Of a stretch of DNA of 6,988 nucleotides, positions 6,001-6,988 are shown one piece after another. Made by a program: the position numbers. The DNA is from a virus (lineage: Duplodnaviria > Heunggongvirae > Uroviricota > Caudoviricetes), in the IMG/VR virus record IMGVR_UViG_2778261541_000002, positions 1 through 6,988 of that record, one strand, 5' to 3'. Position 1 is the first letter of the stretch. Every line of letters starts with the position of its first letter.

Positions 6001-6988
6001 GCAGATAGCCCGTGAAGAGAAAGAGGCAGAACTGGCAGACGACATGGAAAAAGGCCTGCCCCAGCACCTGTTTGAATCGCTATGCATCGATCATTTGCAA
6101 CGCCACGGGGCCAGCAAAAAAGCCATTACCCGTGCGTTTGATGACGATGTTGAGTTTCAGGAGCGCATGGCAGAACACATCCGGTACATGGTTGAAACCA
6201 TTGCTCACCATCAGGTTGATATTGATTCAGAGGTATAAAACGGATGAGTACAGCACTCGCAACGCTGGCAGGGAAGCTGGCTGAACGTGTCGGCATGGAT
6301 TCTGTCGACCCACAGGAACTGATCACCACTCTTCGCCAGACGGCATTTAAAGGCGATGCCAGCGATGCGCAGTTCATCGCATTGTTGATCGTCGCCAACC
6401 AGTACGGCCTTAATCCGTGGACGAAAGAAATTTACGCCTTCCCTGATAAGCAGAACGGCATCGTTCCGGTGGTGGGCGTTGATGGCTGGTCCCGCATCAT
6501 CAATGAAAACCAGCAGTTTGATGGCATGGACTTTGAGCAGGACAATGAATCCTGTACATGCCGGATTTACCGCAAGGACCGTAATCATCCGATCTGCGTT
6601 ACCGAATGGATGGATGAATGCCGCCGCGAACCATTCAAAACCCGCGAAGGCAGAGAAATCACGGGGCCGTGGCAGTCGCATCCTAAACGGATGTTACGGC
6701 ATAAAGCCATGATTCAGTGTGCCCGTCTGGCCTTCGGATTTGCTGGTATCTATGACAAGGATGAAGCCGAGCGCATTGTCGAAAATACTGCATACACTGC
6801 AGAACGCCAGCCGGAACGCGACATCACTCCGGTTAACGATTGTCAACGACGGATGAAAAGTGATCCACTTATATCTCCACCAACGGCCCAATATTGATCC
6901 ACCGTTTTACTCAGGATTAGCTTCAGCTATAATCCCGGCCTTTCGTTTCTGTCTGAGTCGATAGCTTTCTCCTTTGATTTGAACGACA

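Follow-up and report, generated by a model that had tools for sequence, protein, structure and literature searches.

In a lambda-like Escherichia coli prophage, IS100, an insertion sequence first described in Yersinia pestis, interrupts the bet gene after codon 199. The window, a stretch of 6,988 nucleotides from viral record IMGVR_UViG_2778261541_000002, otherwise represents the early-left region of the prophage (cro, cI, N, sieB, ral, an ea10-like gene, cIII, kil, gam and bet). A simple insertion of IS100, with the remaining part of bet and exo on its far side, is the most likely event, and is assigned a probability of about 0.7. The features concerned are listed below in window coordinates.

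6244..6840, plus strand: lambda-type bet (Red-beta, RecT family), 5′ 597 nt, codons 1–199 (597/597 to L007/L008; 596/597 to phage 434; Pfam RecT)
6836..6840, no strand: presumptive 5-bp target site ACGAT, bet nt 593–597 (from the 5-bp duplications at other IS100 copies)
6841..6897, plus strand: tail that the IS contributes to the chimeric ORF, 18 codons and stop (translation; the sequence is that of IS100)
6841..6988, minus strand: terminal 148 nt of IS100 (IS21 family), istB-proximal end, running on past the window (148/148 to full 1954-bp copies, e.g. L001 4001–4148)
6841..6868, no strand: 28-nt terminal inverted repeat of IS100 (TGTCAACGACGGATGAAAAGTGATCCAC), the outermost IstA-binding repeat (pairs with L001 5927–5954, about 75% complementary, termini TG...CA)
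6878..6902, no strand: additional, internal copy of the terminal repeat (CACCAACGGCCCAATATTGATCCAC; placed by means of the D4 direct and I2 inverted repeats of the reference copy, converted to window coordinates)
6907..6988, minus strand: istB (helper AAA+ ATPase), its 3′-terminal part with the last 26 complete codons and the stop (the minus-strand translation is the C-terminus of IstB annotated in L001)

Results

The breakpoint in bet

The last long ORF in the window, at 6244–6897, is translated into 217 amino acids. Residues 1–199, ending ...ERDITPVND, are those of the phage 434 or lambda-type Bet, and the same residues are found in phage 434 Bet and in the related intact prophages. Where intact Bet reads ETMQEIN... 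to residue 261, 18 foreign residues follow. Pfam RecT (PF03837) is recognized in the product at residues 24–183 with an E value of 1.4e-33, and the bet segment spans the N-terminal DNA-annealing domain and the start of the linker/C-terminal region. Compared base by base with bet of phage 434, nt 6244–6840 are identical at 596 of 597 positions, the lone mismatch being at 6708; with the intact bet of E. coli 13E0767 (L007) and Z1323PEC0011 (L008) the identity is complete (597/597).

Beyond this point the homology ceases at once. When 6244–6988 were searched by megablast against 50,697 phage records, 203 records matched, and every match listed ends at query position 597, equal to window 6840; none of them continues beyond bet nt 597 with the tail of the window. 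The in-register identity to bet after 6840 is 24%, i.e. random. The position of the break is unambiguous, the next base of intact bet being G and that of the window being T, base 1 of the IS terminus (TGTCA). The preliminary description had followed lambda Bet to about residue 199, counted 18 unrelated residues before the stop, and placed the break near nt 6840. The match does run through residue 199 exactly, the translation gives the same 18 residues and stop, now seen to be encoded by IS100, and the break is fixed to the base between 6840 and 6841.

Identity of the sequence after the break

Matches to nucleotides 6841–6988 were found in 3,988 E. coli records, with 148/148 identity and an E value of 8e-71 for the top one; in every E. 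coli match listed, the annotated gene at this place is the IS21-like IS100/IS100kyp helper ATPase IstB. With 22 additional nucleotides taken from a carrier contig (L002, below), the identity grows to 170/170. The IS part of the window begins at base 1 of the inverted repeat (TGTCAACG...). A reference copy of IS100 in NCTC9008 (L001) is 1954 bp long, starts TGTCAACGACGG..., ends ...CGTTCGTGACA, and codes for IstB and IstA; the 5 bp CCAAG are directly repeated on its two sides. The copy ends in ...GTGACA, and the IS part of the window starts with TGTCA at 6841. The IS21 family is marked by a doubled terminal repeat (L1/L2 and R1/R2), TG/CA termini, 5-bp duplications and an istA-istB pair, in which istA encodes a DDE transposase and istB an AAA+ helper ATPase (PMC10122671). 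The internal repeat at 6878–6902 fits the multi-repeat R1/R2 end typical of the family (PMC10122671). Compared with complete 1954-bp IS100 copies of E. coli chromosomes and plasmids, the element in the window has the same TG...CA termini, the same doubled repeat and the same IstB C-terminus, and differs nowhere in the visible part, which is about 8% of the element; the last 26 istB codons are identical to those of the full IstB. Judged from its sequence, the element is IS100 itself and no mere relative. Its istA and istB are oriented antiparallel to bet.

The 18 foreign residues are accounted for by the bet frame reading through into the end of the IS. The preliminary description saw no exo-like coding after the break, which agrees with 6841–6988 being IS100 with istB on the minus strand. 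It had proposed a match search across the junction, with an IS among the candidates, and the search returned IS100 at 148/148. Of the kinds of junction it considered as the cause of the lost Bet C-terminus, an insertion or deletion or the boundary with another element holds, for the right terminus of IS100 adjoins bet nt 597; a prophage/host boundary does not.

The carrier contigs and the related prophages

An exact protein lookup finds the chimeric 217-aa product on only two contigs, each of about 7 kb. One of them is NJYI01000101.1 (L002; assembly GCA_002459205.1; 7,032 nt), of which the window equals positions 23–7010 except for one G/A SNP at window 462. Given this SNP, the window probably derives from the sister assembly, the other carrier of the contig. 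This contig stops 170 nt into IS100, 170/170 identical to the reference copy. The contig end is a repeat-induced break of a short-read assembly at a multi-copy IS and no prophage/host boundary. Because the contig ends inside the IS, the far side of IS100 lies beyond view. In an exact search, the left junction between bet and IS100 was absent from the complete RefSeq E. coli genomes, the one-genome-per-species contigs, the metagenome contigs and the viral contigs, and this IS100 insertion allele appears to be lineage-specific.

Prophages 99.9% identical to that of the window are present in complete E. coli genomes. In 13E0767 and Z1323PEC0011, bet is intact (786 nt, 261 codons), with a 4-bp overlap between it and exo. 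Beyond exo come orf60a/orf63 homologues, xis and int, and then the host gene ybhC, which marks the classical lambda attachment site. The empty site of these prophages reads ...CCGGTTAACGAT/GAAACC.... In other respects, too, the prophage of 13E0767 is complete, and it has lysis, head and tail genes. It belongs to the same family as that of the window, and past its tail fibre genes lie two genes for type III effectors, cif and nleH (L009 778–2731).

Other features of the prophage

A 2570-bp deletion relative to 13E0767 (L007 5571–8140) was observed in the window, with its junction at 569/570, a 2-bp microhomology and an ORF at 510–773. Lost with it are the last 92 nt of cII, the genes O, P, ren and ninB in full, and the 5′ 51 nt of ninE, cII and ninE being minus-strand genes. 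As a result, the prophage cannot replicate. A different and independent deletion of the same module is found in Z1323PEC0011 (L008).

Between cI and N, at the position of rexAB, lie two overlapping plus-strand genes (1939–2496 and 2493–3245) with matches to PDC-M24, a candidate defence system in PADLOC. The product of 185 aa, with a weak DUF6978 match, is similar to PDC-M24A at an E value of 5e-4, and the 250-aa product (DUF1828) to PDC-M24B at 6e-10. From these matches, the pair is probably a prophage-borne anti-phage defence cassette.

Discussion

Simple insertion and its alternatives

In the proposed pathway, a 1954-bp IS100 encoding IstA and IstB would have transposed into bet of the lambda-like prophage between nt 597 and 598, with istA and istB antiparallel to both bet and the pL operon. 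The bet frame enters the IS for 18 codons and stops, giving Bet(1–199) with 18 additional residues. The insertion would be simple, with the 5 bp ACGAT duplicated, and the last 189 nt of bet followed by exo, xis and int would lie about 1.95 kb downstream, as in the related prophages. A second copy of ACGAT would then be expected at the far end of the IS, by analogy with other IS100 copies.

Simple insertion and REARRANGEMENT were weighed from IS100 copies elsewhere, the duplication length being taken from genomes. Target duplications of 5–6 bp flank IS100 at four of five independent full-length (1954 bp) sites: CCAAG, CCGAT in pcoB, ACGGT in cas3f, and the 6-bp CTCTAT. A simple insertion is therefore most likely here as well. 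The remaining site, in E. coli SLK172 (L005 3009–4962), has no duplication; that copy lies between the tail assembly gene T and a truncated ninB, and is an IS100-associated rearrangement or deletion inside another lambdoid prophage.

The far junction predicted by a simple insertion is ...CGTTCGTGACA-ACGAT-GAAACCATGCAGG..., so that with the 5-bp duplication CGTTCGTGACA would be followed by ACGATGAAACCATGCAGG. An IS end followed by 0–12 nt and GAAACCATGCAGG... was absent from the one-genome-per-species and metagenome contigs. A synthetic far-junction query of 344 nt gave no spanning match in the complete RefSeq E. coli genomes, and the predicted far-side chimeric ORFs of 75 and 73 aa were not on record in an exact lookup. 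An ORF of 60 aa, a remnant of the Bet C-terminus, is carried by hundreds of contigs and is hence not diagnostic of the far junction; the other members of its cluster are contig-edge partials with no IS-derived leader. These negatives count for little, because the same collections also lack the left junction, although it certainly exists; they show only that the lineage is absent from the collections searched.

The main rival to a simple insertion is an IS-associated rearrangement. Once inserted, IS100 would have mediated a deletion next to itself or recombined with a further IS100 copy, so that the 3′ portion of bet and genes downstream were lost or moved elsewhere; unrelated DNA would then lie past the IS, and the ACGAT duplication would be absent. 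Such a rearrangement is considered clearly the less probable of the two. SLK172 offers a precedent in a lambdoid prophage (T, IS100 and ninB in this order, duplication absent), IS21-family members have been reported to promote adjacent deletions (PMC9330008), and the prophage of the window is already decaying, as its deletion from cII through O, P, ren and ninB into ninE illustrates. The far junction of a simple insertion was also found nowhere in the collections searched. Against this, the other four full-length IS100 sites are simple insertions with duplications, and a missing far junction carries little weight for a lineage absent from the searchable collections.

Two further explanations concern the reality of the junction itself. 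A contig of bet could have been joined chimerically to an IS100 fragment during assembly, as might be supposed from a short contig that ends in a repeat and from a junction that is missing from the other collections searched. Nevertheless, the join sits exactly at base 1 of the IS terminal inverted repeat, as transposition demands, and a graph mis-join needs a shared k-mer, of which bet and IS100 have none here (24% identity after the join, and the IS flank unmatched before it). Two assemblies, distinguished by a SNP at another position, contain the same junction, which was therefore inherited rather than created by a one-off error. An artefact of assembly is accordingly very improbable. Still more remote is the idea that the C-terminus belongs to a naturally occurring form of Bet, in a functional phage where exo comes directly after it. 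Nothing was found in its favour, and it is refuted by the DNA after the junction, which is 100% IS100 with istB on the opposite strand, and by the matches in the listed phage records (203 matching), which all end at nt 597, with the product known from only two contigs. The preliminary description had named a normal variant C-terminus with exo next to it as the finding that would speak against a break; the near-identical prophages instead have a bet of 261 codons followed by exo.

Consequence for Bet function

Red-beta consists of an N-terminal annealing domain of about 180 residues and a C-terminal three-helix bundle that binds lambda Exo and the host SSB (PMC6393309). Relative to lambda Bet (261 aa), the protein encoded in the window shares the RecT annealing domain and is without most of the Exo- and SSB-binding C-terminal domain: residues 200–261 are absent, with 18 IS-encoded residues in their place, and the C-terminal domain is not intact. 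The engineered C-terminal truncations 1–185 (C3) and 1–217 (C2) of Red-beta abolish both ssDNA and dsDNA recombination in vivo, with in-vitro DNA annealing retained in 1–185 (Subramaniam et al. 2016, PMC5052646). The natural truncation point at 199 falls between those of C3 and C2. Since both truncations are dead, Bet(1–199) should be dead too; unlike these constructs, the natural allele bears a foreign tail of 18 residues. By analogy with the lambda truncations, the product would keep the annealing domain and lose most of the three-helix bundle, and with it Red recombination. Bet(1–199) with its 18 additional residues is almost certainly recombination-dead, even if stable. If exo is still downstream, a 1.95-kb element whose genes run antiparallel would stand between it, with the 4-bp bet/exo overlap, and the translation of full-length bet. 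Taken with the truncation data, the Red recombination system of the window prophage is very probably inactive.

A recurrent deletion endpoint in bet

In many cryptic prophages of E. coli, deletions were observed to end repeatedly at one position, bet nt 589/590 (window 6832/6833; loci L017–L025, L026, L027–L033 and L126). The 60-aa remnant ORF of the Bet C-terminus is very widespread, and in nine of ten remnant places read the bet homology starts at exactly nt 590 (TTAACGATGAAACC...). The left partners in these junctions are of four unrelated kinds, namely a region upstream of kil, the inside of gam, the inside of ninG, and a DLP12-type ninE/ybcN segment. The kil- and gam-type junctions have microhomologies of 2 and 3 nt; the ninG-type junction has none and fixes the break at 589/590. 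The complementary case is the DLP12-type prophage of TW10690 (L026), where bet is retained to nt 593 at most and joined to the 3′ end of int via a microhomology of 7 nt. A sample unbiased by the 60-aa ORF was formed by 120 viral contigs containing a bet 3′ word. Among these, true internal truncations occur only at nt 590 and nt 591 (/TTAACGATG...), the latter with a fifth left partner, a lysis-region segment.

No IS was present at any of these junctions, that of TW10690 included. Alleles with foreign DNA at the endpoint were sought in the viral contigs for duplication geometries of 0, 3, 4, 5 and 9 bp, and none was found; a search of the viral contigs for foreign DNA after CCGG, TTA, TTAA, TTAAC or TTAACGATG gave only SNP alleles of intact bet and one unrelated sequence. 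Secondary att sites of lambda Int, invertase pseudo-sites and HpaI-type restriction breaks were rejected without dedicated tests, no sequence match or geometry fitting 589/590 being seen.

A site-specific break or a former insertion would leave this pattern, a constant endpoint whose partners vary on either side, and both are candidates. IS insertion, adjacent deletion and IEE-assisted excision form a published route that "barely leaves traces" (PMC8860574; PMC9943667). Bet nt 587–598 (CCGG/TTAACGAT/G), which forms the linker between the annealing domain and the C-terminal domain, might conceivably be a hotspot for breakage or transposon insertion, with IS100 at 597/598 as a live example and the 589/590 deletions as footprints of excised insertions, and this proposal is regarded as speculative and rather unlikely. 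The distance of only 8 bp between the endpoint and the IS100 site is no evidence of a link, because the search by way of the 60-aa ORF preselects breaks at about nt 560–603 and favours breakpoints within about 40 nt of the IS100 site of the window.

In the same part of the gene, bet alleles are common up to ...CTCCGGTTA and then diverge more (TTAGCGATG..., TTAGTGATG..., with many downstream changes), as seen around bet nt 590–650 in the viral contigs L157–L185, L069 and L153–L156. This pattern suggests that the linker between the two domains may also be a mosaic boundary among bet alleles.

Significance

Disruption of prophage genes by IS elements is routine in E. coli, and an event of this kind is already known. 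The present case resembles the IS-driven decay of lambdoid prophages, e.g. by IS629 in O157, in that an IS breaks an early-region gene and replication genes are also deleted. It is unlike the IS629 case in the IS family involved, and no sign of excision or of IEE is seen here. For annotation, bet in this prophage is a pseudogene interrupted by IS100. The insertion is a further decay step of a lambda-like prophage already without O, P, ren and ninB, and has little wider significance. The sole point of possible broader interest is the exact bet deletion endpoint common to many E. coli cryptic prophages. If this shared endpoint reflects a site-specific break or insertions that have since vanished, it would illustrate, in nature, how IS elements can reduce a genome and leave no trace.
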